Assembly (NCBI RefSeq): GCF_000696425.1
Contig: NW_007726576.1
Span: forward strand, 660,522-702,401
Source of the DNA: Galeopterus variegatus
Taxonomy: Eukaryota
DNA: 41,880 bases
Direction: 5' to 3'
A program made the position numbers and the translations under genes. The stretch's first letter is position 1. The number at the start of each line of letters is the position of its first letter. This document shows, in pieces, positions 4,563 through 37,446 of the stretch. A model generated the notes under the pieces. That model had not been told where the DNA came from. It did no database searches and saw only the letters and a program-made list of their open reading frames with translations.

Positions 4563-4727
4563 CTGAAGGTTTTCATTCAAAGCCTTGTCTTGCTGCCAGG
4601 GCGCTACGGAGGCAGGCATGAAGAAGACAGCAATAGCACCTTGGATGCTGAGTTCTGTGATGTAGGTGATCTTGATAAGCACCTTCGCCTTAGGGGGTAA
4701 GTTTCCAACACTCACAGTAAAAACGTC
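4563..4727 (-). CDS. PARP4: PARP4 exon (start of VIT domain), 165 nt, phase 0/0. Translation: DVFTVSVGNLPPKAKVLIKITYITELSIQGAIAVFFMPASVAPWQQDKALNENLQ
   Basis: Minus-strand acceptor ...ctgtttcag|GACGTT (AG at 4728-4729) and donor CTTCAG|gtttgt. The product is VIT-domain-like (compare ITIH 'FQVSVSVAPNAKITFELVYEEL') and matches my memory of human PARP4 'DVFTVSVGNLPPKAKVLIKITYITELSI'. Confidence 0.85.
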
Positions 4728-5048
4728 CTGAAACAGAAACATATGACAACTTTCAAGCCAAAAGAATCTGTTCTATGCTAGTTAATCACTCATAGTTACT
4801 CAACTTGGATTAAAATCTGCCAGGTTCTTCCTCAGAAAATGGTAATAGAACCTACAAAACACATTGGTGGTGCTAAGGAGAATCCTGGAGCCATTCCCAG
4901 TGGTAGAGACGGAGTGACATGTGCGGGAGGTGGAAGAAGAGAAGGCCCCTTGGCAGCTGCACGGGGGAGCATCACCTAATGGATCTGCACTGTGGCCTCG
5001 CACACATGGGCTTTGTCGAGTGGACGGCCTCCACACAGCCCCCTTCTT

Positions 5049-5238
5049 TTTATTTTATTTTATTTTATTTTTTTATTTTTTTTTAAAAGATGACCGGTAA
5101 GGGGATCTTAACCCTTGACTTGGTGTTGTCAGCACCACACTCAACCATTGAGCGAACCGGCCATCCCTATGTGGGATCCGAACCCGGGGCCTTGGTGTTA
5201 TCAGCACCGCACTCTCCCGAGTGAGCCACGGGCCGGCC
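5049..5238 (-). mobile_element. tRNA-derived SINE, class B (tRNA-Ile-like dimer, ~150 bp) with a (TTTTA)n-type tail
   Basis: Reverse complement reads GGGCCGGCCCGTGGCTCACTCGGGAGAGTGCGGTGCTGATAACACCAAGGCCCCGGGTTCGGATCCCACATAGGGATGGCCGGTTCGCTCAATGGTTGAGTGTGGTGCTGACAACACCAAGTCAAGGGTTAAGATCCCCTTACCGGTCATCTTTTAA. The 17-bp TSD CACACAGCCCCCTTCTT is at 5032-5048 and 5239-5255. Unit 1 resembles tRNA-Ile (GTGGTGCTAATAACGCCAAGG...GGTTCGATCCC). Confidence 0.85.
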
Positions 5239-6618
5239 CACACAGCCCCCTTCTTGAAGAACCTTTGGCCTCCCCAACCTCCACTGCTCCAGCACCAGTT
5301 CCACCCATGGCTACAGAACTAGAGAAGCTTTCTCTCAACAGACACAAGGCAGAATTGGCTGCTGCTGTGGTGGGAGAAGGTGCAGAAATGCAGAGAAGTC
5401 CCCACTGTAATGCCCAGGAGCACAGGTCCTGCCTAAGACTGAAGCTGAACAGAACACCCCTGCCCCCACCACGAGCCTAGCACCAAGTGTCAAGGAAGAG
5501 CAGTCTACCACTAGGGGAGGGACAGGAGCATGGCAAAGCCACCTCTGTGGGACAGTGTTCAGGGCCTGCTGAAAGTGAGGGTAGTGCATGAACGCCAAGG
5601 AAAGCCCTTTGGCATCCCAGGACCCACCATGCACCTGGTAATGGCAGCCCACTACTGGAGTAATTTGAAGACGATGGTGCACTGAGGGTCATAATCACAA
5701 CAAAACCCAAACTCGACTCAACTTTGTGACCCCTACACTAACAGCCTGACAGGACAGGAGTGGCCATTTCTGGCATAAATACCATTTGTTTTAGCCTCTA
5801 CTCTTCTTCTACACCCAATGTTCAGAACTCAATCACAAATTCCAAAATATACACATAAAAAAAGCAAGAAAAAAATGACCAAATGTCAAGAGATAAAGCA
5901 ATTAACAGAACAGACTCAGAGATGACCATGGCAAAAATGTATTTCAAAAAAGAAAGTGAAAGATTTTATCAGATAAGCAAAAGGTGAGAGAATTCCTTGA
6001 GAGCACCCTTGCACTGCAAAAAAAAAAAAATGTTAAAGAGAACTCTTCAAGCAGAAGGAGGATAATACCAGATGGAAATTTTTTTACTTATTTCTAATTG
6101 CTTTAAAAGACAGTTGAATATCTAGAGCAAAAAAGTAACAACATGTTGTGGGATTTATAACATATGAAGAAATAAAATACACAACAATAGCACAAAGATA
6201 TGGGGGGAAATGAAAGTATACTGTTGTGAGGTTCTCATACTATACTTGAAGTAGTGTGATATTACTTCAAGGTAGACTGTGGTAAGTGGAAGATGTACCT
6301 TGTAAAGCCTGAAGCAGTGCTGACCAATATTCCTTTCTATGATGATAAAAATGTTCTATAGATGGACTAACCAATAACACAGCCACTAGACACATGCAAA
6401 CATTTTATTTTATTTTAAAAACTAACTTAAATGTAACTAGTGGCTACTGTATTTTAACATGCAGCTTGAGAGCAAAAACCAAAAGTTGTTAAGAGAGGTA
6501 TAATTAATAAGCCAATAATGGTGATAAAAGAATCATAAAAAATACTCAGTACAAAGAAGGCAGGAAAAGAGAGGGGAAGGAACAAAGAACAAATGGGACA
6601 AACAGAAAACAACTGGCC

Positions 6619-6850
6619 TGGGCTGGCCCGGTGGCACACTGCTGCAGTACGCCGCTTGGGAGTGCGGCGGCGCTCCCGCCGAGGGTTCGGATCCCACATA
6701 CAGACCGGCCGCTCGCTGGCTGAGCGAAGCGCGGGGGCAACGCTGAGGGTTGCGATTCTGTTGCCGGTCCTGGTCCGGTACGGGCGCGACACTGAGGGTT
6801 GCGATCCGTTGCCGGTCACGAAAAAAGACAAAAAGGAAAAAAAAAAAAAG
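6619..6850 (+). mobile_element. tRNA-derived SINE, class A
   Basis: GGGCTGGCCCGGTGGCACACTGCTGCAGTACGCCGCTTGGGAGTGCGGCGGCGCTCCCGCCGAGGGTTCGGATCCCACATACAGACCGG...GAAAAAAGACAAAAAGGAAAAAAAA. The 13-bp TSD AAAACAACTGGCC is at 6606-6618 and 6851-6863. Confidence 0.9.
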
Positions 6851-7261
6851 AAAACAACTGGCCAGACGGGAGATGCAAATCCAACCAGATTAGTAACCAC
6901 ATTACATGAAAATGGTCAAAACAATCCACTTAAGGTGCAGAGACTGTCAGACTGGATGAAACAACAAAACTTGACTATATCCTGTCTAAATAGTATAGAG
7001 TTATGGTGAAAAATAAGTCAGTCTAGATTTTTAAAAGAGGAAAAATGGTCAAATAATCCCATAAATGGAGGTCTCAGAAACACTGCCATTTAATCTGGCA
7101 ATTAGGAGGATGTAAGTGGTGCTGGCTGAGCATTCACTCCAGCCTTGGTTGTGGCAACACAGTTCTCTTATTATTTTACCATTAACTCTTTCCTGTCTTT
7201 TTCTGTTACTTCCCCTCTTAAATATTGGGGATATTTTAATATGTAATTATAAATACATAAA

Positions 7262-7322
7262 TACAGAGATTTACAATTAGATATTTATATATATATATAT
7301 ATACATATATATATGTATTTAC
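7262..7322. repeat. (TA)n-rich simple repeat
   Basis: atatatatatatatatacatatatatatgtat run. Confidence 0.6.
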
Positions 7323-8199
7323 ATCTTTATACTTCTATCTTTACAAATAGCATGTTAAGAGCTACATGACAGATATGTCGAGGTTGCCATGGAAGCAGAA
7401 AGTAATTGCATCTAACTTTTCCTGGGGAAAAGCAGGAAAAGCTTTCATTTCCTCTTAGATAAAGGGATTCCTAAGCTAACATTTTAAAAAGTTTTTAAAA
7501 TCAATATATATATTTTTTTAAATCAAGCAAACAAATGTAGTTAGAACATTCCATCCAGAAGAGCAAGCACCTCTGCAAATGGCATTGTTTCTGGGAAATA
7601 CAAATAGCTCAAGCTTATTGGGGTATGAAGTACAAGGGAGAACACAATGAGTGAGACAGAAGAAGCAGACAAAGCCAAGTCTTCGAAGGCCTCCTGCGCC
7701 ATGTTAACGAAACAAGGGAACAACCTGTGGGTCCTAAACTAGAGAAAGGGTTATAGTAAGGTGATGACATGGGCGGATTCCACAGACACTTAGTAGAAAA
7801 CTTCAACAGATGATTAACTGCATATGGGATTTAGGCATATTACTTAATAAGTATGTGTTTTTTATTTTTTAACTTAAAATTTTAAATTACTGATTTATTT
7901 TAATGAGCACTCTCGTTCCTTTTATAACCTGACTTCAAAAATTATTAAATGAAAGATGAATTTATGTATATACCAAAGATGGGCCAATATAAATTTTATT
8001 CTAGTAGTTTAGACAAAGACTTTATTGTGCCTTAACCCAAGAAATCTTAGAGAGGAAAAAAATATATATATAATTTCAGATAAAATTAGACCTAAGGAAG
8101 TGGTAATGGTGTGCTAGGCAGCTTTCCCTGGGTAGGGCAGCCCAAGTCCTTCTCTGCTTCTGCTTTTACCACACAACATTTGAAGGCAGGTGTTCCGGG

Positions 8200-9030
8200 C
8201 TGCATCCTTGGATAATGCCCAATCTGCCCCCAGGCCATCATCTCAGAGACTGCCAGGATGACTCCCAGACCCCCATGCCCAGTGCAGATCTCTCTCCTGA
8301 GCTCTTGACCCTATATCCAGCTTCTTCAGGGACTTGTGCTCACAATGTCCCACCAGTTCTTGAACTCATGATCTCCCCACCCTCCTTACTCCAACACCCG
8401 TGTAGAACCCCACTGCTGTGATCCTTGCCCTGGGGATGCCCACACCAGAACTGCCCAAGTACTATCCTCAGCTCCATTTACTCTGGCACACCCTCCACAC
8501 ATCCTCCACCCCTTACCCAGGGCTGTCCTTCCACCTCCCTAAATTGTCCACAGCAGTTGCATCTTCTCCTTTTCCAAGGTCACTACCTTAGTTTAGGCCC
8601 TCCTTCTACTCTACCACAATGGTCACCTAACTGGTCTTGCCCCTCCAGACTTCTCACTGCCTGCTGAGTGTGCTTTCTCACAGACAGGTCTCATCACTGC
8701 TACTCCAGCCAGGCCAAAATACACCTATTTTCCCAGGGAATGGCACTACTTCAGGTCTCTCACAGCCTGCACTGTGTCCCCTGTGCTCGCAAGGCCCTCA
8801 CCTCATGGTGTACCTGGGGAATGCCTGCTCAGCTCAAGTGCCTCTGTCCCTGGAAAGGCACACCCGAGGTCACTGCCTTGCTGTTCCACTGCTCCGTTAG
8901 TGCGGGAAAGGCATGTCCCCAGCACTACACTTGCTGGGCATGCTAGACCATGCACCCACATGGGACCAGCTGGCATTTCTAAACTGCCAGCGTCTGGCAT
9001 AGGTGCTAAAGTTGGTCTAATCATGAAGTG
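8200..9030 (+). mobile_element. Ancient LINE-2 (L2) 3' fragment
   Basis: Resembles the L2 3' region ('...ctccagacccccatgcccagtgcagatctctctcctgagctcttgaccctatatccagc...cttcagg...ctcacagcctgcactgtgtcccc'). The many overlapping short ORFs here are L2-derived. Confidence 0.4.
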
Positions 9031-9711
9031 AAGAAAGAGGTAGGCAACAGCATCATTTAGGATGACACGGAGTGGCTGCTTTTTGCCATTTTGGAGATTG
9101 CAGGAACACTTAGCAGGAGGATAACTGGATGGTCTGTGGGAAAGTGGCTAAGTCTCATGTCGAAAGAAGGAGAGTAAAGGGGTGGGAATCTGAGGGGAGA
9201 AGAAGGAGCCAGCGAGGGTCTGCTTTATTTTTTAGGGTGGCTAGGTCAAGGAGAAAAAGCGAGTCGTGAGGGAGAAAATGGAAATACAGAGAGGTAATGA
9301 TGGATGGGCACATGCTAGGGAAAGCTTACATGAGATGAGATAGGACGGGGGAAGGGATCAGCATTAGAAATAATCAGGGAGGAAAAAGATGAGGCTGAGG
9401 ATGTCACTTTTGAGCTGGAGGGAGGAAAGCTAAAGGGATTCATGACTTACACTTGTTTTCATTTGAAATAAGAAGAGGGGTCACCTACTGATAGTGGAGA
9501 TACAGGTAAGGTTGCTGGGTTAAGGAGAATGGTAAAGGATTAAAATAGCAATTTTTATGCAGAGAACAAAGAAGCCAGCTGGGGTGAAGAAAGGACTGCA
9601 GAGGTGTAGAGCAGGAAGGGTTGGAGAACGCCACCTAGCTCTTCATTGCAAGACATGCTTCTCCCAGCGTTATCCAGATTTCTGATACACAGCATTAATC
9701 TGATTAATCTT

Positions 9712-9870
9712 TTTTTTTTTTTTTTTGTCCTTTTTGAGACTGGCCGCACCGCACTCAGCCAGTGAGCGCTTTGAGCGCACTGGCCATCCCTATACAGGAT
9801 CCGAACCCACAGAGGGAGCGCTTCTGCGCTCCCAGCGCCGCACTCTCCCGAGTGCGCCAAGGGCTTGGCC
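9712..9870 (-). mobile_element. tRNA-derived SINE, class C
   Basis: Reverse complement reads GGGCCAAGCCCTTGGCGCACTCGGGAGAGTGCGGCGCTGGGAGCGCAGAAGCGCTCCCTCTGTGGGTTCGGATCCTGTATAGGGATGGCCAGTGCGCTCAAAGCGCTCACTGGCTGAGTGCGGTGCGGCCAGTCTCAAAAAGGACAAAAAAAA. The 11-bp TSD TGATTAATCTT is at 9701-9711 and 9876-9886. Confidence 0.85.
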
Positions 9871-10019
9871 CAATTTGATTAATCTTAACGCATCTCCATA
9901 TAACATTCCAACACAAATGATCCGTCTCTCAACACTTTGGATGTCTAAAACTAGAAGAGAGTTGGAAACATTTTATACTGTACATATGTGTGTGTGTCAA
10001 ATAACATCTTTTGATTCTT

Positions 10020-10230
10020 GGGAACATATATGCAACACACAATATATATTACTATATTATATATAGGCTATGCATATGATTTACAATATTCCCCACTATC
10101 AGAAGACTAATATATGAAATATCTAATAATATAAACATATAACTTAATACACATATAGTAATATATAACAAAATATATGTATTTTATGATGATATCATAT
10201 ATTATTATAGCATGAGAACATCAAAGTCAC
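10020..10230. repeat. AT-rich low-complexity / (TA)n-like region
   Basis: Runs of tatata / atatgatt / aatatata. Confidence 0.5.
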
Positions 10231-11256
10231 TAGACAGCAAAATTCATATAGGGAAACCATGGCTTGAGTTGGCAGTAGTTCTGACCAGACTTTACCCGAA
10301 AGTAATATCTTTTGTGAATACCGTTTTCCTGTGGATCATATCCCTAGAAAAATATGTTAGTACAAACTAGGAAACAAATTTACCAACTCATGTCTGACAG
10401 TAACTCCACACTATTAAGCATCAGTCTCTAAAATGAACCGCAGGCTTTTATAAACACAGTTTGGCCAGGGCTAGTAGTATTAACTTTTAATCCTCATCTC
10501 TTCGTTGCTTATCACTATCTGGCAAATAGTTACCCTAGCTGTCAAAAGTAGTAATTTACACCCTAAATCTACATTAATCTTTCATACATCCCTAACCCCA
10601 ACAAACATTAACCTTTCACAATACTAAGGCAAAGTGTCATCCTCAGAGTTAATACCTGAAGCACACAACCCCATCTGCAGAAACTACTACCATGCAGTCA
10701 AGGCATGGTCAGACACTGCATGTAATCCAGCACCTGCCAGAGGCACATTTAAAACACCTTATATTTAACAAAAGTAATCTAGTGGCGTGATAATTGCTCC
10801 TTTTTCCAGACTCTCCACATTACGTTCCTGTTAAAGCAATAATCAGAAAGCAAAGAAGCTGGACCCATCTCACAGCTGTGTAGAAATGCCTTTCTGGGTT
10901 ATGATTTGGTAAAAATTGGATAAATTGCTAACTGAACTTAGTTCTAGGAAAAATGTAAATATATCACACTCTCTTCTCAGAAGATAAAAATTATATACCC
11001 CAAATGTTTTCTTTTTGTTGCCACTTCTGGGAAAGTCAGTTCCCCAGGACAGAAATAGCTGTTTGGTAATATCCTCCTTATTTGGACTAGTCAAATGGGT
11101 CTGACGGGCTTGGCCTACCCTTGCACACAGCAAGTGAAACTCTGAGAGAGTGGAAGTTATCTTGATCTCTAGTATAAGTCTCGTATTTCAAACCCTTTTC
11201 CAACTCTTCTTCCCTCTCTTGTAAGCACACTGACTGCTGGTGAGCACCAGCCGTAC

Positions 11257-11343
11257 CGGAGCATCCTGGTCCATCAAGTAGGCACCATGGCCTCGGCTGA
11301 CGGCATCTCGGTATTCTTGCTGGGCTTCTGCCTTCTCTTTAAT
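11257..11343 (-). CDS. PARP4: PARP4 exon (VIT domain), 87 nt, phase 0/0. Translation: IKEKAEAQQEYRDAVSRGHGAYLMDQDAP
   Basis: Acceptor tcttttccag|ATTAAAGAG and donor GCTCCG|gtacgg on the minus strand. The translation matches my memory of human PARP4 'IKEKEEAQQEYLEAVTQGHGAYLMSQDAP' and joins in phase to the flanking exons. Confidence 0.8.
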
Positions 11344-12012
11344 CTGGAAAAGATTATTTTTACACCAGTCATTATATGAAGAGGGACTTTAGACTTTACT
11401 AAGGAAAGTTACATCAGTGTTCACTAAACCTAGGTAAAAACAGGAAACTAAGCATCTAAGATGAAAGGAAAGTTATATAAGGTTATCATAAAAATGTACT
11501 TATGTAATAAGGATTTGGACTAGAAAAGGCAAACTAAAGAGAATTCTCTTTATGTTGGGACCAAAATATTTCAGAGTCAATAGTGGAAAAACAGTTTGGT
11601 TGGAACTTTACATTGAACAAAAAAATAATAAAGTTTATTTTAAACTCAATAAATTGTGTGTTATATATAATTGCAACTGTGGGCTAATTCTTAGAATAAA
11701 CAAAGAATAAATCAACTACTATTTCTTTTGGTACAATTTTTCTTAGAAATTTACAATAATAGCTTTTACTTCAGCTTGACTTTTAAGCAGGATGAGAAGG
11801 ATGTTTTGGCAAAAATATATGAGGGCTTCACTAATTTTCCAATGTGCCTCTCTTAAACTTCTGATATTGAAATCACTCTTTTTTAAAGTGCCCAGGCAAA
11901 AAATTTGCAAGACACTGACGATAAAGACTGGACAGGTAAGAACAGAAAACAGTTAACAGGGAGGGACGTTTGACTGGAGGCTGATTGCACAAACGTTTGT
12001 TCTTCAAAGAAT

Positions 12013-12238
12013 TTTTTTTTTTCCTTTTTGTCTTTTTTACTGACCGGTAACGGGATCGCAACCCTCGGTGTCACGCCCGCACCGGGGACCGGCAACGGGA
12101 TCGCAACCCTCAGTGTTGCGCCCGCACCGCGCTCAGCCAGTGAGCGGGAACCGGTCTCCACATGGGATCCGAACCCTCGGCGGGAGCGCCGCCACACTCC
12201 CAAGCGGCGCACTCTCCAGTGCGCCACCGGGCCGGCCC
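12013..12238 (-). mobile_element. tRNA-derived SINE, class A
   Basis: Same structure as the SINE at 6619-6850, in reverse orientation (T-rich start, ...CACTGGAGAGTGCGCCGCTTGGGAGTGTGGCGGCGCTCCCGCCGAGGGTTCGGATCCCATGTGGAGACCGG... head GGGCCGGCCC). The 8-bp TSD CAAAGAAT is at 12005-12012 and 12238-12246. Confidence 0.9.
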
Positions 12239-12372
12239 AAAGAATATTTTTGTTTTATGATAAGGCTGCTACTCAACCCTGCATCCACAGGGACTCAGAT
12301 AACGAAGATTTCAGTAAATGGGAAATTGACTTTGAAAGCACAGAGTGGTTGCAATGCACTTTCTCCCCTTAC

Positions 12373-12504
12373 CTCTCCTACGATGTGCTTCCCGTTGATG
12401 AACGCTTCAAAGCCACACACAGCTGCCTTATCATCCAAAGGAAAGATATATTTTGCCTCAATGGGCACATGATGTTGATTTGTGTATGTCTGAAAAACAA
12501 TTAC
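12373..12504 (-). CDS. PARP4: PARP4 exon (VIT domain), 132 nt, phase 0/0. Translation: VIVFQTYTNQHHVPIEAKYIFPLDDKAAVCGFEAFINGKHIVGE
   Basis: Acceptor ttcttctttag|GTAATTG and donor GGAGAG|gtaagg. The translation matches my memory of human 'VIVFQTYTNKSHVPIEAKYIFPLDDKAAVCGFEAFINGKHIVGE' almost exactly. Confidence 0.9.
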
Positions 12505-13380
12505 CTAAAGAAGAAAAAAATCCATATACTTGAACCACATGGAACCACATTTGCAGGAACAGTGACTAATGAAAATGACCACACATACTCGTTTTAAATT
12601 CCTTGAATTTTTATCAGGGCCCTCAAGTTCCCAATCCTGGCTTCAGGGGTCAGCGCATTCTAGCACAGCAATGCACAGTCCATGTCACATGATAAAATGC
12701 ACTGGCACATATTTAGGTAGTTCATACATGACTGACTGGCATATAAGTCACCTGAAGTCTTACAAACACTGTCTTAACAGGGGCAATACAGCTCTTATTA
12801 CAATGGCTGGAAAAGAGCCCCTTCCATGATGTGGGCTCTGATGCCTCCCTGGTGTTGCGTGGGCTGGAAACTATTCCAGAATACTCCTCCTACCCGATCT
12901 GCTTTCAGGTCTTGCTATTTCCTCATGGGGATGTCTCTCTGGCTTTACTGCTCTCTACCAAGCTCTCCGGTGCCTTTCCTCTTCTAGCTCCACGTCTTCC
13001 TGCTGTGATTCTTCCAGAACCAAATATTTTCCATTCCTACCTGCCATCTGTATTGTTACCAAATTAGTCTTCCTAAATGGACTGTGCTCATCACCTCACA
13101 CCTTTGCTCAGGAAAAGCAGGAGGCTTTAGATATTTGAAAATTAAAAAGAAACACCCTTAGACATATAACAAACAGTAAAATTTAAACATGTGGCAATAA
13201 TAAGGCAAACTATTTAACAATTTGTACTAGTAATCTCTGGGAAGAGAAGAAAATTAAAATTAAAAAAAAAAAAAAAACTAACATTTAAAAATACTGTCCA
13301 CACCTAGACTTACTGTAAGTGGGCTGTCCCCTGTGTGTGAAGGGTACCATTCCAGGCAAAATTGTCCAAGGGGCCCCCCT

Positions 13381-13609
13381 TTTTTTTTTTTCCTTTTTGT
13401 CTTTTTTTACTGACCGGTAATGGGATCACAACCCTTGGTGTCGCGCCCGCACCGGGGACCGGCAACGGGATCGCAACTCTCGGTGTTGTGCCCGCACCAC
13501 GCTCAGCCAGTGAGCGGGAACCGGTCTCCACATGGGATCCGAACCCTCGGCGGGAGCGCCGCCATGCTCCCAAGCAGCGCACTCTCCAGTGCGCCACCAG
13601 GCCGGCCCA
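13381..13609 (-). mobile_element. tRNA-derived SINE, class A
   Basis: Near-identical in structure to the 12013-12238 copy. The TSD is CAAGGG(G)CCCC(C)TTTT, at about 13369-13380 and 13608-13622. Confidence 0.9.
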
Positions 13610-15269
13610 AGGGCCCCTTTTAATATAAACAATTTGAGTCTCCCAAAATCATCAGGTCAGCACCCTCTTGAAGACCCAATCTCTTGCCATCCTGCAAATA
13701 AATGCCTTGCTGGCTGGCAGGAGCGATCCCTGGAACTGGGGTCTGGGCATGGCGCAGGATGACGCCAGAGGTGAGAGCCCAGGAGTTTCTCAGTTATTTG
13801 GGCAACATGGATGCATGGCAGAAGGATGGAGAGTGCCTGACAGGGAAGACACGGGGGCTGGAGGCATGCAGGTGCTGATTGGAGGGGTGTCACACACTGT
13901 CTCCTTGGCTGTGCATGGAACTCCCTCCATTTGTCTCTTGGAGTTTTCTGCAGTTTTAGCAAACCCTTGAGAGCAGCATGTGTGCTTGACCTGGATTTGA
14001 TGAATAGGATGACTATCTAATTGCACTTGGTTTAGGTGCGATTAGATAGTCAGCAGACCTTCTGCACGTGAGCTCCCCAAGGCCAGGCCTGTACCAGCCC
14101 ATTCTCTTCATACATTGTGTGAACAGGCACTCAAAAAGTCAGTCATTTTAGATAATGATGATAAAAGTATTTTTATCAGGACTTAGAACAGAAACTAATA
14201 AACTGTAAAATGTTTGACATCTTAATTTTCTTCCTTTAGATGAAACCACTATGTAACTAAGCTGAAAACATTAAACTCATTCCTAGGAGGATCGAAATGT
14301 GAGTCATGCACATGCCAGAGTCGCGGGTGGGCCTCTGCATGGATACATGAGGCCAATCTACAGGCCAGCTGTCCCATCATAAGTTATTTTTGGGTGACCT
14401 TCCCCAGGGAAGCGGCCTCTTCGGGTCTCTTGAAACAGTGCAAGTTGTGAAATCCGGAGTAAGATGCGGAGGACATATGCCTCTCCTTGTAACATACTCA
14501 TAATTTGTTTTGCAGCTACTACATGTGAAAAGAATGCCCGAGGGCCTTTACATTCGTTACATCTAATAGCCACAACACTGATGGGCAGATAGGATTATTT
14601 CCACTTTACACAGGAGGAAACTGAGGCACAAAGTAGTTAACTAACTTGCCCAAGGTCACGGCGCTAGAAAAGAAGGAGCAAGGATACAAAGCGAGGCCTT
14701 TCCAGCTCCAAGCCTTTGCTTCACAGTCTACGCCAAGCTGCACGACAGTGCAGTGGCTCCGAACCCTGATGCTGGAATTAGAATGATCTGAGTTCAGATT
14801 CCGGCTTCATCGTACTGTTCAGTATCCCTGAGCCTCAGCTTCCTCATCCAAACAACACGCATAATTATTGCACTTACCTCATACAGTTTGGGAAGAACAA
14901 AACACGCATGTGAAAAACTCAACCCAGGGCCTGATTCATAGGAAGTGGTAACCACGGTGGTTATAGCTCCCAAATAGCTCCAAAGGGACTGGCAAGTATA
15001 GAACACTGCCCACAGCCCACATCCACGTCTTCCCATCTGATGTACATCATATCAGGTGGGTATGGATCAGATGGGCCAGGGTGGGGAGGTCAGATAGAGC
15101 CAAACTGCTCTTCCCCACCCCTCCGCACCCGTTTCCCCAGTTTACGGTGATTGCTAAAATGAACCTAATTTCCTTCTAAAGGGATCAGAATATCACAGTA
15201 CTGGACTCAGACATTCTTATTCTCCTAAGAGGTCTTTATATTTGTTTGATGCAATCTTTTTTAAAAAAT

Positions 15270-15600
15270 GTATTTATATTCATTGTGCATTTTTATGGTG
15301 TACAGTTTGTTGTTTCAATACACGCATATATTGTGTGATCCACTCAGAATAATTAGCGTATCTATCACCTAAGCAGTTATCATTTCTTCCTGATTATAAC
15401 ATTCAAGAACTTTTTTTCTGGCTATCTTGAGATATACAATGCTATATTACTAGCTCTTGTCACCCTAGAGCACCAGAATTTATTCTTCCCATTGAACTGT
15501 CACTCTGTAACTTTGTACCTGTTTACCAGCTTCTGCCCATTCCCCCCCCTACCCCCAGCTTCTGAGTCTGGTAACTGGCATCTTACTCGCTCTTTCTTTC
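15270..15600 (-). mobile_element. L1 3'UTR fragment (5'-truncated), antisense
   Basis: Reverse complement resembles the L1 3'UTR region ('...tttatggtgtacagtttgttgtttcaatacacgcatat...ccccagcttctgagtctggtaac...'). A second, similar 3'UTR copy follows at 15730-16190 in the large L1. Confidence 0.55.
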
Positions 15601-15614
15601 CTTTTCTTTTTTTC

Positions 15615-15724
15615 TAATTTTTATTTATTTATTTATTTATTTAAAAGATGACCAGTAAAGGGATCTTAACCCTTGACTTGGTGTTGTCAGCACCACGCTC
15701 TCCCAAGTGAGCCACGGGCTGGCC
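15615..15724 (-). mobile_element. tRNA-derived SINE, class B short variant (~85 bp core plus (ATTT)n tail), inserted in the T-rich tail region of the adjacent L1
   Basis: Reverse complement reads GGGCCAGCCCGTGGCTCACTTGGGAGAGCGTGGTGCTGACAACACCAAGTCAAGGGTTAAGATCCCTTTACTGGTCATCTTTTAA. It lacks the ~70 bp between the two internal GGTGCTGA(T/C)AACACCAAG repeats. The same breakpoints recur in the 26007-26114 copy. Confidence 0.75.
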
Positions 15725-18700
15725 CTTCTTTTTTATTCTTTCTTAATTGACCCATGAAAATTGTATATATTTATGGAGTACAGTGTGATATTTAGGTACA
15801 TTTATACAGTGTGCAATGATTATATCAGGGGAGTTAGCATATCTATCTCCTCAAGCATCTGGCATCTCTTTGTGTTGGAAACATTCAGAATCACCTCAAT
15901 TAACCACTTGAAGTGATACAGTAATTTGTCATTGACTGTAGTCTCCCTATATTGCTATAGAACAGTAGATCTTGTGTTTCCCATCTCTCTACTGCTTTGT
16001 TTCTGTTGACTACCTTCTTCCTACACCGCCCCCGGCACCAGTCTCTAGTAACCACTATTCTACTCTCTACTTCCGTGAGATCAATTTTTTCAGCTTTCAC
16101 ATGAGTGAGAACATTCATTATTTCTCTTTCTGTGCCTGGCTTATTTCATGTACAATAATTTTCTCCAAGCTCATCCATGCTGCTGCAAATGGCAGAATTT
16201 CATTCTTTTTTTATGGCTGAGTAGTATTCCATTGTGTATATATACCACATTTTCTTTATCCAGTCATCCATTGATGGACATTTAGGTTAGTTCTGAATCT
16301 TGGCTACTGTAAAGAGAGCCGAGATAAACATGGGAGTGCAGGTATCCTTTTGACTTGTTGATTTCCTTTCCTTTGTATATATACCTATGGCTGGATCGTA
16401 TCTGTGGTTGAGAAACCTCCGTACTGTTTTTGATAATGGCTGTGCTAATTTACATTCCCACCAACAATGTATAAAAGTTCCCCTTTCTCCACATCCTTGT
16501 CAGCATTTGTTACTTTCTGTCTTTTTGATAATAGTCATTCTAAGTGGGGTAAAATGATAGCTTATTGTGGTTTTGGTTTGCACTTTTCTGGTAATTAGTG
16601 ACGTTGAGCACTTTTCCACATACCTATTGACCATTCACATGTCTTCTTTCAAGAAATGTCTATTCAGTTCCCTTGCACATTTTTAATCAAAAAAAAATTT
16701 TTTTTTACTATTGGGCTGTTTGAATTCCTCGTATATTCTGGATATGAATCCCTTTCATAGTTTGCAAATATTTTCTCCCATTCTGCAGGTTGTGTCTCCA
16801 CTTTGTTGATTTTTTCCTTTGCTGTGCAGAAGTTTTAGTTTGATATAATCCCATTTCTTTATTTTTGCTTCTGTTGCCTGTGCTTTGGGGGTCTTGTTCA
16901 TAAAGTTTTTGCCTAGTCCTATGTCTTGAAGCATTTCCCCTATGTTTTCTTCTACAAGTTTTATATTTTTGTGTCTAACATTTAAGTCTTTAATCCATTT
17001 TGAGTTGACTTTGGTATATGGTGAGAGACAGGTGTCCAGTTTCATTCTTCTGCATATGGATCTCCAGTTTTCCCAGCACCATTTATTAAAGAGACTGTCC
17101 TTTCCCCAATGTATGTTCTTCGCTCTTTTGTCAAAATTCAATTGGCTGTAGGTACATGGAATTATTTCTGGAGTCTATATTCTGTTCCACTGGTCTATGT
17201 GTGTGTTTTTGTGCCAATACCATGCTGTTTTGACTATTATAGATTTGTAGTGTAACTTGAAGTCAGGGAGTATGATGCCTCCTGCTTTGTTCTTTTTGCT
17301 CAAGATTGCTTTGGTTATTTGGGGTCTTTTGTTGTTCCATGTAAATTTTTGGATTGTTTTTTTCTATTTCAGTGAAGCATGTCATTGGTAGTTTGATGGG
17401 GATTGCACTGAATCTGTAGATTGCTTTGGGTAGTATGGCCATTTTGACAATATTGATTCTTCCAATCCATGAACATGGGATGTCTTCCCATCTTTTGTGT
17501 GTCTTCTTTAATTTCTTTAATCAGTGTTTTACATTTTTCCTCGCAGGAATCTTTCACTTCCTTGGTTAAATTTATTCCTAGGTATTTTATTCCATTTTTT
17601 TGTTGCTATTGTAAATGGGATTGTTGTCTTGATTTCTTTTCCTGATAGTTTGTTGTTGATGTGTAGAAATGCTACTGATTTTTGTATGTTGGTTTTATAT
17701 CCTGCCACTGTACTGAATTTATTCATCAGGTCTAGGAGTTTTTAGGTTTCTCTCTATATAAAATCATATCATCTGCAAACAGGGACAATTTGACTTCCTC
17801 CTTTGCAATTTGGATGCACTTTGTTGCTTTCTCTTGCCTAATTGCTCTGGCTAAGACTTCCAGTACTATGTTTAGTAAAAGTGATGAGAATGGGCATCCT
17901 TGTCTTGTTCCAGTTCTTAAAAAAAAACAAAAAAACAAAAAAACTTTCAGCTTTTCCCTGTTAGCTGTGGGTTTGTCATATATGGCCTTTATTATATGTA
18001 CATACCTTCTATACCTAATTTGTTGAGAGTGTTTGTCATTAAGTGATGTGGAATTTTATTGAATGCTTTTTCTGCATCTATCAGGCTGATCATATGGTTT
18101 TTCTCTTTCATTCTATTGATGTGATGTATTACGCTTACTGATTTTCATATGTTGAATTATCCTTGCACCCCAGGGATAAATCCCACTTGAGCATGGTGTA
18201 TAATCTTTTCGATGTGCTGTTGGATACGTTTTGCTAGTATTTTGTTGAGGATTTTTACATCTATGTTCATTAGGGATGTTGGCCTGTAGTTTTCTTTTTG
18301 TTCTTTGTTGTGTCCTTACATGGTTTTGTTAAAAAGGTAATGCTGGCCTCATAGTATGAGTGTGGAAGGATTCCATCCACTTCAATTTTTTGAAATAGTT
18401 TAAGAAGTATTGGTATTTTGGTATTACTTCTTTAAATGTTTGGTAGAATTCAGCAGTAAAGCTGTCCAATCCTGGGCTTTTCCTTGTTGGGAGACTTTTT
18501 ATTGCTGATTGAATCTCGTTACTCATTATTAGTCTGTTCAGGCTTTCTATTTCTATTGGGTCAGTGTTGGCAGGTCATATGTGTCCAGGATTTTTTCCAT
18601 TTCCTCTACATTTTCTAATTTATTGCTTATAGTCATAATTGTCTCAGATGATCCTTTGAATTTCAGTGGTATCAGCTGTAATGTCTCCTTTTGCATTTAT

Positions 18701-21470
18701 GATATTATTTATTTGGGTCTTTTATCTTTTTTTCTTGGTTAGTATAGCTAATGGTTTGTCAATTTTGTTTATCTTCTCAAAAGAACCAACTTGTTGTTTG
18801 ATCTTTTGTATTGTATTTTTAGTCTCAATTTCATTTATTTCTGCTCTGAGTTTTATTATTTATTTCTACTTATTTTGGACTTGGTTGGTTCTCTCTTTGC
18901 TAGGTTGTTTATTTGAACTCATTCTATTTTTTGATGTAGGCACTTGTTGCTATAAACTTTCCTCTTAATAGTGCCTTGGCTGTGTCCCGTAGGTTTTGGT
19001 ATCTTTTGTTTCTGTCTTCACTTATTCAAGAAATGTTTTGATTTCCTTCTTAATCTCTTCTATGACCCACTGGTCCTTCAAGAGCATGTCATTTAATTTC
19101 CATGTATTTGTGCATTTTTGAAAGCTCCTCTTGTTATTAAGATCTAGATCTATTCCATTATGGTCAGAAAACATACTTGATATGATTTTGAACTTGTTGA
19201 GACTTATTTTGCGGCCCACAATATGGTCAATTCTGGAAAATGTTCCATGTGCAGATGAAAAGAGTATGTATTCTGCAGCTATTGGATGAAATGCTCTGCA
19301 AATATCTGTTAGGTCCAGCTGGTGTATGGTGCCCTTTAAGTCCAATGTTTTGTTGTTGATTTTCTGTCTCGATGATTTGTCTAACACTGAGATTGGGATG
19401 TTATTGTCCCCAACTATTACTGTGTTAGTGTCTATCTCTCCATTTACATCTGATAATATTTATTTTATATACCTGGGTGCTCCACTGTTAGGTGCATATA
19501 TATTTGTTTTTTGGGGTTTTTTTTTGATGGCTAGCCATGGTGCGTAAATTTTTATAATTGTTATATCCTCTTGCTGTATTGATCTCTTTATCATTCTATA
19601 ATGCCCTTCCTTTCTCTTAGTACAGATTTTGATTTAAAGTCTGTTTTATCTGAGATAAGTATAGCTACTTCTGCTTGCTTTTGTTTTCCATTTGCATGGA
19701 ATACCTCATTCCATTCCTTGACTTTCAGTCTATGTGTGTTTTTGTAAGTAGGGTATGTTTCTTATTGGCAGTATATGGATGGGTCATGTTTTTTTTCTTT
19801 TTTAATCTATTAGGCCAGTCTATGTCTTTTAATTAGGGCATTTAATCCATTTACATTCAAGGTTATCATTGATATGTGAAGTCTTGCTCCTGACATTTTG
19901 TTGGTGACTGTTTTGTATTCTTTGTTCCTTTCTTTCTCTTTTATTGTTTATCCTTGTGGTTTGATATTTTCCTGTATTGATAAGGTTTGATTCCTTCATC
20001 TTTCTAATTTGTGTATCTACTCTACTAGTAATTTTATATTTTCAGGTGTTTTCATGATGTTTGCTGTACTTTCTCTTCTAGATGGAGCCCCCTAATCATT
20101 TTTTTTTTGTGGGGCTGGTCTGGTGGTGATGAATTCCCTGAATTTTTTCTTCTCTTAGAAAGACTATTTCTCCTTCATTTTGGAAGGATAGCATTGCTGG
20201 ATATAATATTCTTGGCTGGCAGTTTTTTTTTTTTCAGTACTTTGAATATACCATCCCATTCTCTCCTAGCCTGTAGGGTTTCAGCTGAGAAGTCTGCTGT
20301 TAGTCTAATGATAATTTCCTTATAAGTGACTTGATGTTTTTCTCTTGCTGTTTTTAGAATTCTCTCTTTGTCTTTAACTTTGGATAGTTTGACTACAATG
20401 TGGCTTGGAGTGGGCCCTTTTGGGTTGAATTTATTTGAGGACCTCTGAGCTTCCAGTATTTGGAAATTCATATATTTCCTAAGACTGGGGAAGTTTTCAG
20501 CTATTATTTCATTAAATAGGTTTTCAGTATCTTTTTCGTTTTCTTCTCTTTCTGGAATGCCCATAATTAGAATATTTCCTCACTTATAACATAGATCCTA
20601 TAGGCTTTGTTCGTTCTTTTTTTTTGTCTTCCTGTGTTATTTCAAAACTGCTATCTTCCAGATCAGAAATTCTTTCTTCTGCTTAATCTAGTCTGTTGTT
20701 GAGACTCTCAGATGTTATTTTTTATTTTGTTCAATGAATTCTTTAATTCCAAGATTTGATTTTTTAAATGATATTTATCTCTGTTGAATTTCTCATTCAG
20801 ATCAAGAATTATTTTTCATGATTTTGTTGAATTGTTTGTTTATATACTCTTGTATCTCAGTGAGTTTCCTTAAGATTATTAATTTGAATTCCTTTTCTGG
20901 TAAAACAGCAATTTCTGACTCTTTGGGATCAGTTACTGAAGTATTATTGCGTTTCTTTGATTGTGTCATGTTACCTTGTTTTTTTCATATTTCTTGTTAC
21001 CCTGCATTGATATCTGTGCATCTGGTAGAACACTCCCCTCTTTGAGTTTTGTAGAGTGGCTTGTGTGGGGAAAGACTTTCACCTGCAAGTGTATTCTAGG
21101 GTGTTGATCAGCAGCTGGTCTGCCAAGGGTCAGGCTACTGAGCCACTTCTTGGATAGTGGGCAAGGTCTCTAGGCAGGCCTGCAGAGGGAGCTCAGCCAG
21201 CCACTTCTCAGGTGGTGGGCAAGGCTGAATGTGGGGCTGCAGAGAGCAGGTCTGGCCAATAGCTTTTTGGGTAGTGGATGAGGCTGCTAGGTAGGCCTGC
21301 AGAGAGGGGGCCCAGGCAGCTACTTCTCAGAGGGTGGGTGAGGCCATGAGGTGGGGCTTCAGAGAGGGTTTGTCCAGCCAGCAGCTTCACGGGTGGTGGG
21401 TGAGGCCGCTGGGTGGAACTGCTGAGGATGAACTGCCTGGCTGCTTCTCTGGAAAGGCGCAGCAGTTTGA
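15725..21470 (-). mobile_element. LINE-1, near full-length (~5.7 kb), inactive: 3'UTR, ORF2 (EN/RT/C-term), ORF1, 5'UTR with monomer array
   Basis: Minus-strand ORF fragments in L1 order from high to low coordinates. ORF1 C-terminal domain at 20175-20564 (PSLRKYMNFQILEAQRS...KERILKTAREKHQVTYK). Endonuclease at 19022-19387. RT motifs at 18329-18526 and 17732-17938 ([26 protein letters not shown]...[11 protein letters not shown]). ORF2 C-terminus at 16755-17141. All are interrupted by stops and frameshifts. Confidence 0.85.
21111..21440. repeat. Tandem ~60-bp monomers (about 5 copies), putative L1 5'UTR promoter monomer array
   Basis: Repeating '(g)gcctgcagag(a/g)g(a/c)gctcagccagccacttctcaggtggtgggcaaggc...' with a period of about 58-62 bp, directly 5' of the minus-strand L1. 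This is analogous to murine L1 A/Tf monomers. Confidence 0.6.
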
Positions 21471-21929: not shown

Positions 21930-23640
21930 TCAAGGTCACTGGTGATCTGGTCATTGCTAAATTCAATGACCAGGTCTCAGTTTTTATTTTACTGCATCTA
22001 TCAGCAGCTGTTTTTACTCCTTCTTCTTCACCTTTCAGAGCACCTGGTTTCCTTCGTGCATCTCAATGGCTGCTCCCCTCAGTCTCCCTGGCAGATTCAG
22101 CCTCATCCCCCTGGATGGTCTTCATCCCCCTCTACGTTGATCTTCTCTTCTCTCTCTACACTAATTCTCTTGATGATTTAATATGCGCTCATAATTTTAA
22201 ATGGTATCTGAATGCTGTTGATTCCCCATTCATAAACCCAGCCTGGGTCTCTTCCCTGAACTTAGATTCATATGTCTAACTGCCTCCCTGGCCTTCCATC
22301 CATGTCCAATGTGGACATCTTACCTTAATGTCGCCACAGAGGAACTCCTGACTGTCCCCCCAACGCAGCCTCCCATCCCCTTCCCCATTTCAGTGAGTGC
22401 AAAAGCGGTCCTTCTAGTTGCTCAGGGTAAGAACCTTGGAGTCACCCATGATTGCTGTCTTTTTCTTATGTTCCCTCCCAAGCAGCAAATTATACTGGTT
22501 CTACCTTCGTTCCTTTGCCCAAATCCATCATTCCCTACATCCCCACTGCTAACACTAAGGCCCACTGCCATCACCCTTAACTGAAATCCTTGGCAATCTC
22601 CTATGCTTGGTGCTGTGGAGTGCCTCCACAGGTCCCCTTCACGACCGAAGCTGCTGGGAGTGTCACCGTTTCTGAGTCCCTCCCTGGAAACCGTCCTCAG
22701 CCAAGGTTGTGATCCCTCCCTGGGGGCATCCCATATCCAGTGGTTGGTCTCTGTGGGGGTACAAAGCCTGGTCTCCTTGACTTGATTTAGAGCACTTCTG
22801 ATGGCTACCCCAGCTCAGCACTCCTTCTGAGATCGTCTGAGGACTCTGCTGTGTCCACCTCACAGCTCAATGATTCCCTCTGCCAGGTCCTGCCTCCCTC
22901 ACTCCCTTACAGGTGTTGTTCCCAAGGGGACTTCCCAACAAGCTTCCTGAAAACAAATTTCCATCTAGAGTCTGTTTTCCAGGGAACTTAACGTATTATG
23001 TCTCCTCACTGGTCCTCTTCAGACTGTTCTCAACAGGTGGCCATCCTGTTAAAACACAGGTCTAATTGTATTGCTCCTCTGCTAAACATCTAGAGGCTTC
23101 TGTGTCACCCAGAGTTAAGGACAGCATGTCCTGTGTCCTGATGTGAGCCTCCCCACAACTTCTCAACCCAGTCTCCTCCCACTCTCCCCCTTTGCAATCT
23201 GCCCAGCTACAGTGGCCTCCTTGATGTATATGAGGTTCCCACCTCAGGGCCTTTACATGTGCTTTTTCTCTGCCAGGAATAAGCATCCCCCAGATGTCCA
23301 CACAGTTAGTCCCTTACTTCCTCAGGTCTGTACTAGGTGTCGCCTTCTCAGTGAGGCTTTCCTTGGCCATCCTGTCTACAGGTTCAAACTCCTCTTCCTG
23401 TGCAGCTCCTGTCCCCTCCTACTTTGATTTTTCTATCACCATCTAACATTATGTACTTTACTCATTTATCATGTTTGTTGCCTATTCCCCCAATACAACA
23501 TAGGCTCCATAAGAACAGAGCTTTTGAATTGTCATTGCTGGATGCCCGGAACCCAGAACAGTCCCTGGCATGGATGTGGTGCTCAATAAATATGTGTTGA
23601 ATAAATGAATTTTAGAAATGTACAAGTTTTGTTAGTTCTT
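21930..23640 (+). mobile_element. Ancient LINE-2 (L2) 3' fragment ending in a MIR-like tail
   Basis: Segments resemble L2 ORF2-end and 3'UTR consensus ('...cccatttcagtgagtgcaaaagcggtccttctagttgctcagggtaagaaccttggagtcacccatgattgc...', '...tcagtgaggctttccttggccatcctgtctacag...cccagaacagtccctggcatggatgtggtgctcaataaatatgtgttgaataaatgaat'). Confidence 0.45.
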
Positions 23641-23713
23641 GCAACTGCAATCAAATTCTCATTTATTATTTACATCTGTTTAGTTTAAGCATTGTAAAAC
23701 AACAAAAACATAC

Positions 23714-23838
23714 CTGGGCTACAAAGTCTATTATTTCTCCCTTGATGTGAACATCCTCAAGAGGAACCAAATTCCCAGAGGTATCCTGAAGGCCGGACTT
23801 GATGCTGCTGGAAGGCTTGGTGTCTGGTAACTGGTAAT
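23714..23838 (-). CDS. PARP4: PARP4 exon, 125 nt, phase 1/0. Translation: (D)YQLPDTKPSSSIKSGLQDTSGNLVPLEDVHIKGEIIDFVAQ
   Basis: Acceptor cgtgtag|ATTACCAG and donor GCCCAG|gtatgt. The first codon is completed by G from the upstream exon (G+AT = D). It matches my memory of human 'DYQLPDAKTSSSTKAGLQDASGNLVPLEDVHIKGRIIDTVAQ'. Confidence 0.85.
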
Positions 23839-25081
23839 CTACACGTTGAAAATGGTAACGTTAGCTTTTAAAGCCATCCCTGCACTATTTTTAACTTGAT
23901 CTTTATTCCTTCTCCATCCCTTCATATACTACATTTTAGAAAAAAATGGACAAATAGCATTTTATGATTTTCAATAGCCAATTCTGAAAAGTAAGTGAAT
24001 CCACATGAGAAAAATGGGGGGAGCATTCTCAGATACTTCTGCCTTTTTAATCTAGAGGCTTTGAGGTGTCATCTTGAGAACCTAGAATCATGTTATTACT
24101 TGAAAGACATACACACAAATACACAGAGGTCTTAAAATTATCTCAAAAGTGTAGCTAAATCATGAGTCCAGCTTCCTGCATTCCCTGGCTTGTGATGTTG
24201 GTCAGTCTATTATTTATTGTGCCACAAAGGCATTTTGGAACAATATGAAACTAGTCTAAGAAAAACAAAATCAAACTCCTACTACAGCATATTGAGAAAT
24301 GTTCACTTCCTCTATTAAGTGGTACAAAAAACTAAATATGGTTAGAAATAAAAATATATACTGTCTTGCCAGATATTTCATTTAATGACTCCCAGAGAAA
24401 AAAATGGAATTATCTCCTTAAACATACATGAACTCATATAGTTCTGATAAAAATAATTAGATCACAGTGAAAAATGTTAATGTGTCTTTACAGTCCTATT
24501 AATTAATGATATCGTAGTTGGAAGCTCCCATCCTCACGTGCACTTGTACTTACTACTACAAATACACAAGACACACATTACAGTTCCAGAGAACCTTCAC
24601 TTTTCTCATTTAATCCTATAGCAACACTGTGACACAGACATTGCTCTCATTCCCGTCTGGGAGAAGGTGAAATTCAGGAAGGTTATAAGCGTTGTCCGAG
24701 ATTACACAGCCTCAGCAGCAAGGTTGATGCTCAAACCTGAGCTTCCTGACTCTAAAGCTGTGTCTTCTTTCTACTCTACCCATGCCCTTAGTACTTTTTG
24801 CATTCTGATGTCTTAAAATGGTTCCACGTTTTTTAGTATTGGCTGTCCCCGAGCACAAGCTCAACTTAGGTATGTTAATGAAGTAACATGGAATTTTGAG
24901 ATTACTTAAAAACCAGGACACTTGAAAAAGGTTATGTATGCAAAATAAAAAAGAAAATGAAATATTTATGTCTGAGGTCATAGATACAGATACCAAATAT
25001 GAATATAAATTCCACTGAAAATAGAACTTTGAATTCTATAAATATTACTACACAAAACAGAATTCAAGAAAATTGTCTTAC

Positions 25082-35969: not shown

Positions 35970-36058
35970 CCAGGAATGGATGTCTAGTAGCCCTTGCCAG
36001 CTCAGCATAAAAATGGATTATTTTATTGACCACGACAACTTGAGACAGCATCTCAGCT
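35970..36058 (-). CDS. PARP4: Candidate PARP4 helical-domain exon, boundaries tentative. Translation: AEMLSQVVVVNKIIHFYAELARATRHPFL(G)
   Basis: Minus-strand open frame with acceptor ccatgtgcag|A and possible donors CTGG|gtgaag or GTGCT|gtgagc. Similarity to human 'TLSQEVSDLVEMIWAEALGHLEHMLL' is weak. It lies in the correct order between 37175-37359 and 34789-34949. Confidence 0.3.
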
Positions 36059-36700
36059 CTGCACATGGAAAGCTTCCTGTTCTCTTTCTCTATTGGTTCT
36101 AAGTGCCTCTCCCATCTGTGTGTCTTCAATCTCATGTGCACTAATAAAGCTGAATGCTAAACACTGCAGTGAGTTCATCTTCAAGGGCCTAGAAGCTTTA
36201 TGAGAACAGAAACCTTTTCTGTTTCTAAAATCAGAGAAGAAAGGTAGCCAGAAAGCTCAGCCTGTGAGATGGTTTGTTTCAAAGGAAGGGTTAACATCTG
36301 TGTTCACATCCAGACATGAACTATACCAAAGAGCTCCTCACGGCATGAAATGGGAAGACATTTCACTTAATGTTGCTCAAATCCAACTTTGCCTTTCAGA
36401 GGAATCTCTCGGCAGACAAGCCAGCCCTCTACAGCAAGATCCAAGAGAAGTGGAATCACAGTGGCCAGGCCTTTCATCTGGATGGACAACAGTGTGGCCA
36501 GGTACCTGTTGCTCCTAAGGGATAAGGTGTTGAGGGAACTACATATGAACTGAGCTTGCTGGGTGGCCGGTGCACTGGAAGGTGGACGTGGCTAGCCAGT
36601 CACAGACTGCAGACGCACCGTTAGCCAAAGACCACAGCAGAAGTCAACTGCACCTTCTCCCAGCAGTTTCTATCAAGTGTTCTTTAAAAAGTTTGCTGCT

Positions 36701-36928
36701 GGGGCCGGCCCGGTGGCGCACTGGATAGTGCGCTGCTTGGGAAGCGCGGCGGCGCTCCCGCCCGAGGGTTCGGATCCCACATACAGACCGGTTCCCGCTC
36801 ACTGGCTGAGCGAGGCGCGGGAGCAACACCGAGGGTTGCAATCCCGTTGCTGGTCCCGGTCCGGTACGGGGGCAACACTGAGGGTTGCGATCCGTTGCCG
36901 GACACGGAAAAAAGACAAAAAAAAAAAA
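36701..36928 (+). mobile_element. tRNA-derived SINE, class A
   Basis: GGGGCCGGCCCGGTGGCGCACTGGATAGTGCGCTGCTTGGGAAGCGCGGCGGCGCTCCCGCCCGAGGGTTCGGATCCCACATACAGACCGGTTCCCGCTCACTGGCTGAGCGAGGCGCGGGAGCAACACCGAGGGTTGCAATCCCGTTGC...GGACACGGAAAAAAGACAAAAAAAAAAAAAAA. The 13-bp TSD AAAGTTTGCTGCT is at 36688-36700 and 36929-36941. Confidence 0.9.
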
Positions 36929-37173
36929 AAAGTTTGCTGCTCCACAAGCAGACACATGCATACGAGAGTGTTGGCAGCTTTCTGATTTTAAACCCTACTA
37001 CAACACTGTGGCAGGCCCTATGGTTGCAATCCCGTTGCTGGTCCCGGTCCGGTACGGGGGCAACACTGAGGGTTGCGATCCGTTGCCGGACACGGAAAAA
37101 AGACAAAAAAAAAAAAAAAGTTTGCTGCTCCACAAGCAGACACATGCATACGAGAGTGTTGGCAGCTTTCTGA
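36835..37173. repeat. Duplicated block: the SINE 3' half plus 56 bp of 3' flank (36835-36985) repeated at 37022-37173, with a 36-bp filler (36986-37021) between
   Basis: 'ggttgcaatcccgttgctggtcccggtccggtacgggggcaacactgagggttgcgatccgttgccggacacggaaaaaagacaaaaaaaaaaaaaaagtttgctgctccacaagcagacacatgcatacgagagtgttggcagctttctga' occurs twice. The filler 'ttttaaaccctactacaacactgtggcaggccctat' matches 38963-38998 with one mismatch. Confidence 0.85.
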
Positions 37174-37174
37174 C

Positions 37175-37359
37175 ATGCTATTTAGCATCTCCGTGAGAAG
37201 AACAAACCACTTGACATATTTGCTCTGATAAACAGCATTTTTCTTTTCAACCTTCTGGATAATTTCATGCTCACTAAGAAGAATGTGTGGAATTACTCCA
37301 GAGGAGTCCAAGAAACGTACCTCTAGCCAGCTGTTCACATCTTTCTTTTCAAGCTCCAC
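37175..37359 (-). CDS. PARP4: Candidate PARP4 helical-domain exon, donor tentative. Translation: VELEKKDVNSWLEVRFLDSSGVIPHILLSEHEIIQKVEKKNAVYQSKYVKWFVLLTEMLNS
   Basis: Acceptor gattttcacag|GTGGAG. The 61-codon open frame resembles my memory of human 'IEELKKQGFLLREHFTPEATQLASEQLQALLLEEVMNSS' (ELEKK / LLSEH / LLTEMLNS). Only a weak donor, AGCAT|gtcaga at 37174, is available, and it sits directly beside the duplicated block. Confidence 0.4.
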
Positions 37360-37446
37360 CTGTGAAAATCTGCATTTTGTGGCTTTGAGGCACGGGAAAA
37401 CATCTACTTGGGAATAAGCTGAGATCGTGAATTGTGTGTTTTTTTT

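Follow-up and report, generated by a model that had tools for sequence, protein, structure and literature searches.

The window analyzed here, a stretch of 41,880 nucleotides from Galeopterus variegatus (contig NW_007726576.1, positions 660,522–702,401), most probably represents placental-mammal nuclear DNA with eleven consecutive internal exons of PARP4, the vault poly(ADP-ribose) polymerase, on its minus strand; we assign this reading a probability of about 0.94. The eleven exons join into 1371 nt that encode 457 amino acids without a stop codon, and all of their borders are of the AG/GT type. In a comparison with all chain sequences of the Protein Data Bank (PDB), the 457-residue product aligned with human PARP4 (PDB chain 11jf_P, 1724 residues) gap-free over residues 352–808, with 409 of the 457 positions identical (89.5%, E = 1e-277). 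PARP4 is a known gene of known domain content and structure, and the window holds an ordinary segment of it; what the window provides is a clean exon model for residues 352–808 of a non-primate PARP4.

Exon Structure of the PARP4 Segment

The part of PARP4 that carries the eleven exons (a–k, all on the minus strand) occupies positions 2885–34949 of the window. The exons are 47–184 nt long, are separated by introns of 139–11,209 nt, and make up 3.3% of the window. Exon a (34789–34949, 161 nt, human residues 352–405) encodes the end of the helical domain and the start of the ADP-ribosyltransferase (ART) domain and lies between an AG acceptor and a GTAAGC donor. It is followed by exon b (30378–30515, 138 nt, residues 405–451), which contains the LLHGS histidine motif, and by exon c (28732–28827, 96 nt, residues 451–483), which contains the GIYFSD tyrosine motif. 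A serine codon is split across the junction of exons a and b (AG/T). Exon d (25477–25660, 184 nt, residues 483–544) leads to exon e (25082–25238, 157 nt, residues 545–597), where the catalytic glutamate motif DDEFVVY and the end of the ART domain are encoded. The linker and the start of the VIT domain are found in exon f (23714–23838, 125 nt, residues 597–638), and the VIT domain continues through exon g (12373–12504, 132 nt, residues 639–682) and exon h (11257–11343, 87 nt, residues 683–711) to its end in exon i (4563–4727, 165 nt, residues 712–766). The boundaries of exons b–h are those of the bonobo PARP4-like locus described below.

A previous reading of the same DNA, made from the letters alone (the sequence-only reading), had proposed nine minus-strand exons with canonical AG/GT sites and a continuous frame. 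This proposal holds for exons a–i. Every peptide string quoted in it is a substring of our spliced product, and inspection of the nucleotide context revealed a polypyrimidine tract and an AG before each of the nine exons and a GT after each. Spliced, they yield 1245 nt or 415 amino acids in compatible phases and free of stop codons, and the nine-exon product matched human PARP4 with E = 5.7e-251, which rules out a chance match. The position at which the proposed interval began, 4563, is the final base of exon i. The count of nine was too low, because two more PARP4 exons lie below 4563. Exon j (3103–3149, 47 nt, residues 767–782) encodes DTVEKICIKEIGTKQ and is 100% identical to the human protein; exon k (2885–2963, 79 nt, residues 782–808) encodes SFSLTMSIEMPYVIEFISSDTHELKRK. 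Both were recovered by tblastn with PARP4 relatives, show the borders AG/GTTAGT, and fit in phase. The other end of the proposed interval, 37359, does not mark an exon; this area contains a short interspersed nuclear element (SINE) and a tandem duplication of it.

No upstream PARP4 exon was detected in 34950–41880 by tblastn at a word size of 2 and E values of up to 50 with six PARP4 fragments spanning the helical domain or by fuzzy peptide patterns. Toward the 3′ side, the peptide expected from the next exon, RTDCKAVISTMEGSSLD, was not found in 1–2880, and 1–2884 yielded no additional exon.

Domain Organization of the Spliced Product

The product comprises two Pfam domains in one spliced frame. 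The PARP domain (PF00644, E = 6e-41) extends over residues 38–214 and covers profile positions 1–198 of 199, and the VIT domain (PF08487, E = 5e-41) extends over residues 272–382, C-terminal to the ART domain. A linker of 57 residues connects the two. The sequence-only reading had the VIT domain following directly upon the catalytic domain; its order is correct, whereas the adjacency is looser than the wording implied.

Alignment with PARP2 places the product's motifs opposite all three H-Y-E positions: LLHGS faces LWHGS, GIYFSD faces GIYFAD, and DDEFVVY, with its glutamate, faces NEYIVY. The crystallized catalytic domain of PARP4 was matched as well (PDB 8sx1, E = 2e-131; 8swy, E = 6e-123).

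Human PARP4 (UniProt Q9UKK3; PDB 11jf, 9bw6, 9bw7, 8sx1, and 8swy) shows the same order of helical domain (HD), ART domain, linker, and VIT domain, together with the HGS, GIYFSD, and E-FVVY motifs. The two proteins differ by 48 amino acid substitutions over the eleven exons, which are all that the window contains, and the window's introns are devoid of Alu elements and carry tRNA-derived SINEs instead. Matches in a large protein database were named PARP4 and came from birds, amphibians, fish, and mammals. The product is closer to human PARP4 (89.5%) than to fragments from rodents, camel, or whale (81–84%).

The published domain map of PARP4 runs from BRCT, WGR, HD, and ART through an inter-α-trypsin inhibitor heavy chain (ITIH)-like region with VIT and vWA domains to a domain that interacts with the major vault protein (MVP), a set described as an unusual combination among PARPs (PMC10450202; PMC12280208). 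Once spliced, the exons of the window encode the final helices of the regulatory HD, the entire ART domain including the H-Y-E triad, the 57-residue linker, the VIT domain, and the first ∼40 residues of the ITIH-like region. The BRCT, WGR, vWA, and MVP-interaction domains are encoded outside the window. As established for PARP4, the full protein would bind NAD+, ADP-ribosylate its targets, and use its C-terminal MVP-interaction domain to dock within the vault particle.

Comparison with a Bonobo PARP4-like Locus

As a control we used a 45-kb PARP4-like locus of the bonobo (GCA_028858825.2, CM054474.2:18992578-19037605). Exons 2–8 (b–h) are present there in the same order and with the same lengths and splice borders, without insertions or deletions and at 83–96% nucleotide identity. 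The introns between these exons are also colinear, at about 74% identity, and 53% of the non-exonic bases in 10192–32731 align colinearly with the bonobo locus. Over 303 codons, the method of Nei and Gojobori gave a synonymous rate dS of 0.33 and a nonsynonymous rate dN of 0.069. The resulting dN/dS of 0.21 suggests, on codon comparison, that the exons of the window have been under purifying selection.

The two loci differ in several respects. Within its 45 kb, the bonobo locus lacks equivalents of exon a and of exons i–k, and several conserved residues are altered in it (e.g. TTDLE for TTDFE and SKDE for SKVE). Its introns contain 98 Alu high-scoring segment pairs (HSPs), compared with none in the window, and they lack the 5.7-kb LINE-1 (L1, a long interspersed nuclear element) and several of the SINEs of the window. 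The alignment of the bonobo locus is contiguous across window positions 15258–21470, 12015–12238, and 13349–13616, so that the L1 and the SINEs at these positions are insertions specific to the lineage of the window. The introns contain lineage-specific L1 and tRNA-derived SINE insertions amid older sequence that hominids have as well.

After exon 8, the bonobo locus runs into sequence that is not PARP4. Judged by its sequence, it resembles a pseudogene or partial duplicate that has been annotated as a protein. A second gene is called inside it at 30865–31539, with a weak match to Cyclin_N.

PARP4 Gene or Duplicated Copy

The alternative that fares best is that the window holds not the PARP4 gene itself but a duplicated copy, non-functional or partial, like the PARP4-like and PARP4P loci of hominids. 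Several observations weigh against our reading at this point. The window shows only about a quarter of the gene, which has about 34 exons in human; its BRCT, vWA, and MVP-interaction parts lie outside, so that the eleven exons do not prove the gene to be intact over its full length. Partial PARP4-like duplicates do exist in hominids, as illustrated by the bonobo locus, which is annotated as PARP4-like, retains only exons 2–8, and has altered conserved residues; a recent duplicate in the species of the window would look alike over the eleven exons that the window spans. Furthermore, a very recent tandem array of a 103-nt unit puts exon j behind four decoy acceptors, which, if real, could impair splicing.

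Against a duplicated copy, all eleven exons are open, have canonical splice sites, and show no insertion or deletion relative to the human sequence. Their identity to human PARP4 (89.5%) exceeds that to the degenerate bonobo copy, dN/dS is low, and the exons are far better conserved than the introns. We therefore consider a duplicate very unlikely and retain the PARP4 gene itself as the source of the exons.

Other Origins of the Exons

The second alternative assigns the exons to another paralogue with a PARP or a VIT domain, such as a different PARP, an ITIH gene, or VWA5A. VIT domains do occur in ITIH proteins, and the VIT part of the product indeed matched ITIH4 (E = 9e-8) and ITIH1 (E = 8e-4). 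The best PDB protein other than PARP4 was PARP2, with E about 1e-16 and for the ART domain only. PARP1, PARP2, and PARP3 have in common with the product the ART fold, the H-Y-E positions, and a preceding helical domain, as seen from the published domain map (PMC10450202) and the PARP2 alignment; they differ in that their matches are at E about 1e-16 or weaker and confined to the ART region, and in that a VIT domain does not follow the ART domain in any of the three. PARP2 thus accounts for the ART domain alone and ITIH4 for the VIT domain alone, whereas the two domains occur here in a single product that matches PARP4 from end to end (1e-277), which leaves this alternative with a negligible probability. 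The gap-free human match, the far weaker scores of other PARPs, the combination of Pfam PARP and VIT domains, and an exon/intron order as in the hominid PARP4-like locus together uphold the assignment to PARP4 that the sequence-only reading had made.

That the window is instead prokaryotic or viral DNA with a PARP-like or VIT/vWA accessory or defense gene is suggested only by the occurrence of ART and vWA/VIT folds in bacteria too, and it can practically be dismissed, because the coding sequence is split into pieces of 47–184 nt by introns with AG/GT borders at a coding density of 3.3%, the CpG observed/expected ratio is 0.36, L1 and SINE retroposons are present, and intron sequence aligns in the same order with a bonobo chromosome.

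The overall composition of the window (GC content of 41.5%) and a search of its remaining open reading frames (ORFs) agree with the earlier statement that no prokaryotic system is present. The longest open frame has 207 codons and spans a family A SINE copy and exon g in antisense. Ten other long ORFs of the window belong to no Pfam family. In PADLOC, the PARP4 fragment had no match, and two sub-threshold matches (E about 1e-3, no stretch passing alone) fell on translations of a SINE and an L1. In a scan for prokaryotic systems, the window therefore counts as a negative result, namely eukaryotic host DNA.

Tandem Duplications and Possible Decoy Acceptors at Exon j

Upstream of exon j, Tandem Repeats Finder (TRF) and the sequence itself reveal a tandem array on the minus strand (3198–3670) that consists of 4.6 copies of a 103-nt unit at 99% identity. 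Each unit combines the tail of a family A SINE with the final 45 nt of the intron, in which the polypyrimidine tract and the acceptor AG of exon j lie, and the first 3 nt of exon j. The array thereby sets four decoy acceptors before exon j, with the AG ending at 3571, 3468, 3365, and 3262. Any one of them, if used, would lead to a stop codon within 25–28 codons.

This arrangement would have arisen when a family A SINE inserted ∼30 nt before the acceptor of exon j and the 103-nt unit was afterward amplified in tandem. Should the array be real, use of the decoy acceptors and nonsense-mediated decay could conceivably lower or regulate the output of PARP4 in this species, although we regard this as unlikely.

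Two further duplications are linked to family A SINEs. At 36834–37173, a 188-nt unit is present in 1.8 copies at 100% identity and comprises the 3′ part of the SINE and 87 nt of flanking sequence. The duplication at 32917–33257 (171 nt, 2.0 copies, 99% identity) is internal to the SINE. Together with the array at exon j, three tandem duplications linked to this family thus lie within 42 kb, a hint that a duplication process associated with SINEs is at work. All three may be real or may be artefacts of the assembly. Provided that it is no such artefact, a 3′ splice site amplified in tandem beside a SINE is unusual and may be of interest for studies of splicing and of structural change driven by SINEs.

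tRNA-derived SINEs

The window contains about 15 SINE copies of three related families (81–96% identity), which are composed of two or three tRNA-like modules and an A-tail. Their heads were recognized as tRNA by Rfam (48.6 and 33.1 bits) and drew tRNA-like calls from ARAGORN; A-tails and target-site duplications could be read directly at several copies.

Family A has three tRNA-like modules followed by the A-tail. The copy next to exon j (3615–3850, minus strand) lies ∼30 nt upstream of the acceptor and is flanked by the target-site duplication AACTAATAGATAC. Two copies on the minus strand, at 12010–12250 and 13380–13612, are lineage-specific, the bonobo alignment being contiguous across each. 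Self-comparison recovered two copies on the plus strand (6620–6859 and 30983–31223). The remaining two contain the duplications described above: the copy at 32847–33262 (minus strand) includes the internal 171-nt repeat, and the copy at 36701–37173 (plus strand), with the target-site duplication AAAAAGTTTGCTGCT, ends in the 188-nt repeat of its 3′ part and flank.

Family B has two tRNA-like modules and an A-tail, as seen in the copy at 5044–5248 (minus strand), which gave the Rfam score of 48.6 bits and was also called by ARAGORN. Partial copies lie on the minus strand at 15604–15729 (Rfam tRNA, 33.1 bits) and at 26006–26128 (self-comparison). On the plus strand, the copy at 31445–31640 is flanked by the target-site duplication ACATGGTCTCTG and was called by ARAGORN, and the copy at 41586–41760 is inserted in an L1 ORF1. 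Family C is represented at 1765–1950 (plus strand), nested in the L1 at 226–2848, and at 9707–9873 (minus strand, self-comparison).

The SINE modules matched a tRNA-Ile sequence with E = 2e-9, and the first module has the anticodon GAT (Ile). In this multimeric, tRNA-Ile-like make-up, the copies resemble the CYN/t-SINE family of colugos, to which they may belong. Such tRNA-derived SINEs (CYN/t-SINE) have reportedly been described in dermopterans. Judged by the sequence, the lack of Alu and of 7SL-derived SINEs speaks against a primate host. All young SINEs of the window are multimers of tRNA-Ile-like modules, and the product is nevertheless close to human PARP4, with a dS of only 0.33 to the hominid locus; these features point to a non-primate relative of primates, probably a colugo (Dermoptera).

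Repeat Content and LINE-1 Elements

Recognized L1, SINE, MIR, and tandem-array sequence covers 31% of the window, and its share of the introns is 29%; the 31% is a lower bound, obtained by self-comparison and profile searches. Introns 2–3, 4–5, 5–6, and 10–11 contain no recognized repeat. The sequence-only reading had described the introns as almost entirely retroelements, which is overstated as measured: recognizable repeats make up 29% of the introns (a lower bound), four introns are without any, and more than half of the non-exonic bases in 10192–32731 (the 53% given above) align to the bonobo locus. Alu and MIR were probed with consensus sequences. The Alu probe found no match in the window, compared with the 98 HSPs in the bonobo control of similar length, and the MIR probe found five short fragments. 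At gathering thresholds, Rfam reported only two tRNA-like SINE heads in the window and no snoRNA, miRNA, or 7SL.

The largest insertion is a near full-length but degenerate L1 of 5.7 kb at 15730–21470 (minus strand), which lies in the 11.2-kb intron between exons f and g in the same sense as PARP4. It is lineage-specific and absent from the bonobo locus. The element combines ORF1 (Transposase_22, E = 2e-22, 20178–20579) with the reverse transcriptase of ORF2 (RVT_1, E = 1e-8, 17735–18055). A search of one fragment for the L1 endonuclease domain gave no match. At the 5′ end of the element, a 60-nt tandem repeat occupies 21177–21416.

Another L1 probably begins near the end of the window (40830–41880, plus strand) and runs off it. 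Its ORF1 would start near 41530, it contains the family B SINE at 41586–41760, and 41772–41879 matched L1 ORF1 in tblastx. The preceding block at 40830–41530 resembles a CpG island (GC content of 0.66–0.70, CpG observed/expected ratio of 0.7–0.8) and contains GCA/GCG triplet repeats. We considered this block as a promoter or as an exon of another gene, given an ORF that resembles a signal peptide (MAFLLRVVLLLCGVAG), and rejected this in view of the L1-type ORF1 start at ∼41530, the tblastx match to L1 ORF1, and ORFs that belong to no Pfam family. Most likely, 40830–41530 is the CpG-rich 5′ untranslated region (5′UTR) of the plus-strand L1, which would explain the island-like character of the block.

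A third L1 (226–2848, plus strand) is 5′-truncated, extends from the reverse transcriptase region of ORF2 to the 3′ end, and occupies part of the intron that follows exon k, in antisense orientation to PARP4. It was recognized by RVT_1 (E = 8e-7 on the ORF at 447–698), by an inverted repeat with another L1, and by tblastx, and it harbors the nested family C SINE at 1765–1950. The A-rich 3′ end of this element (2848) is ∼35 nt away from the donor of exon k (2885).

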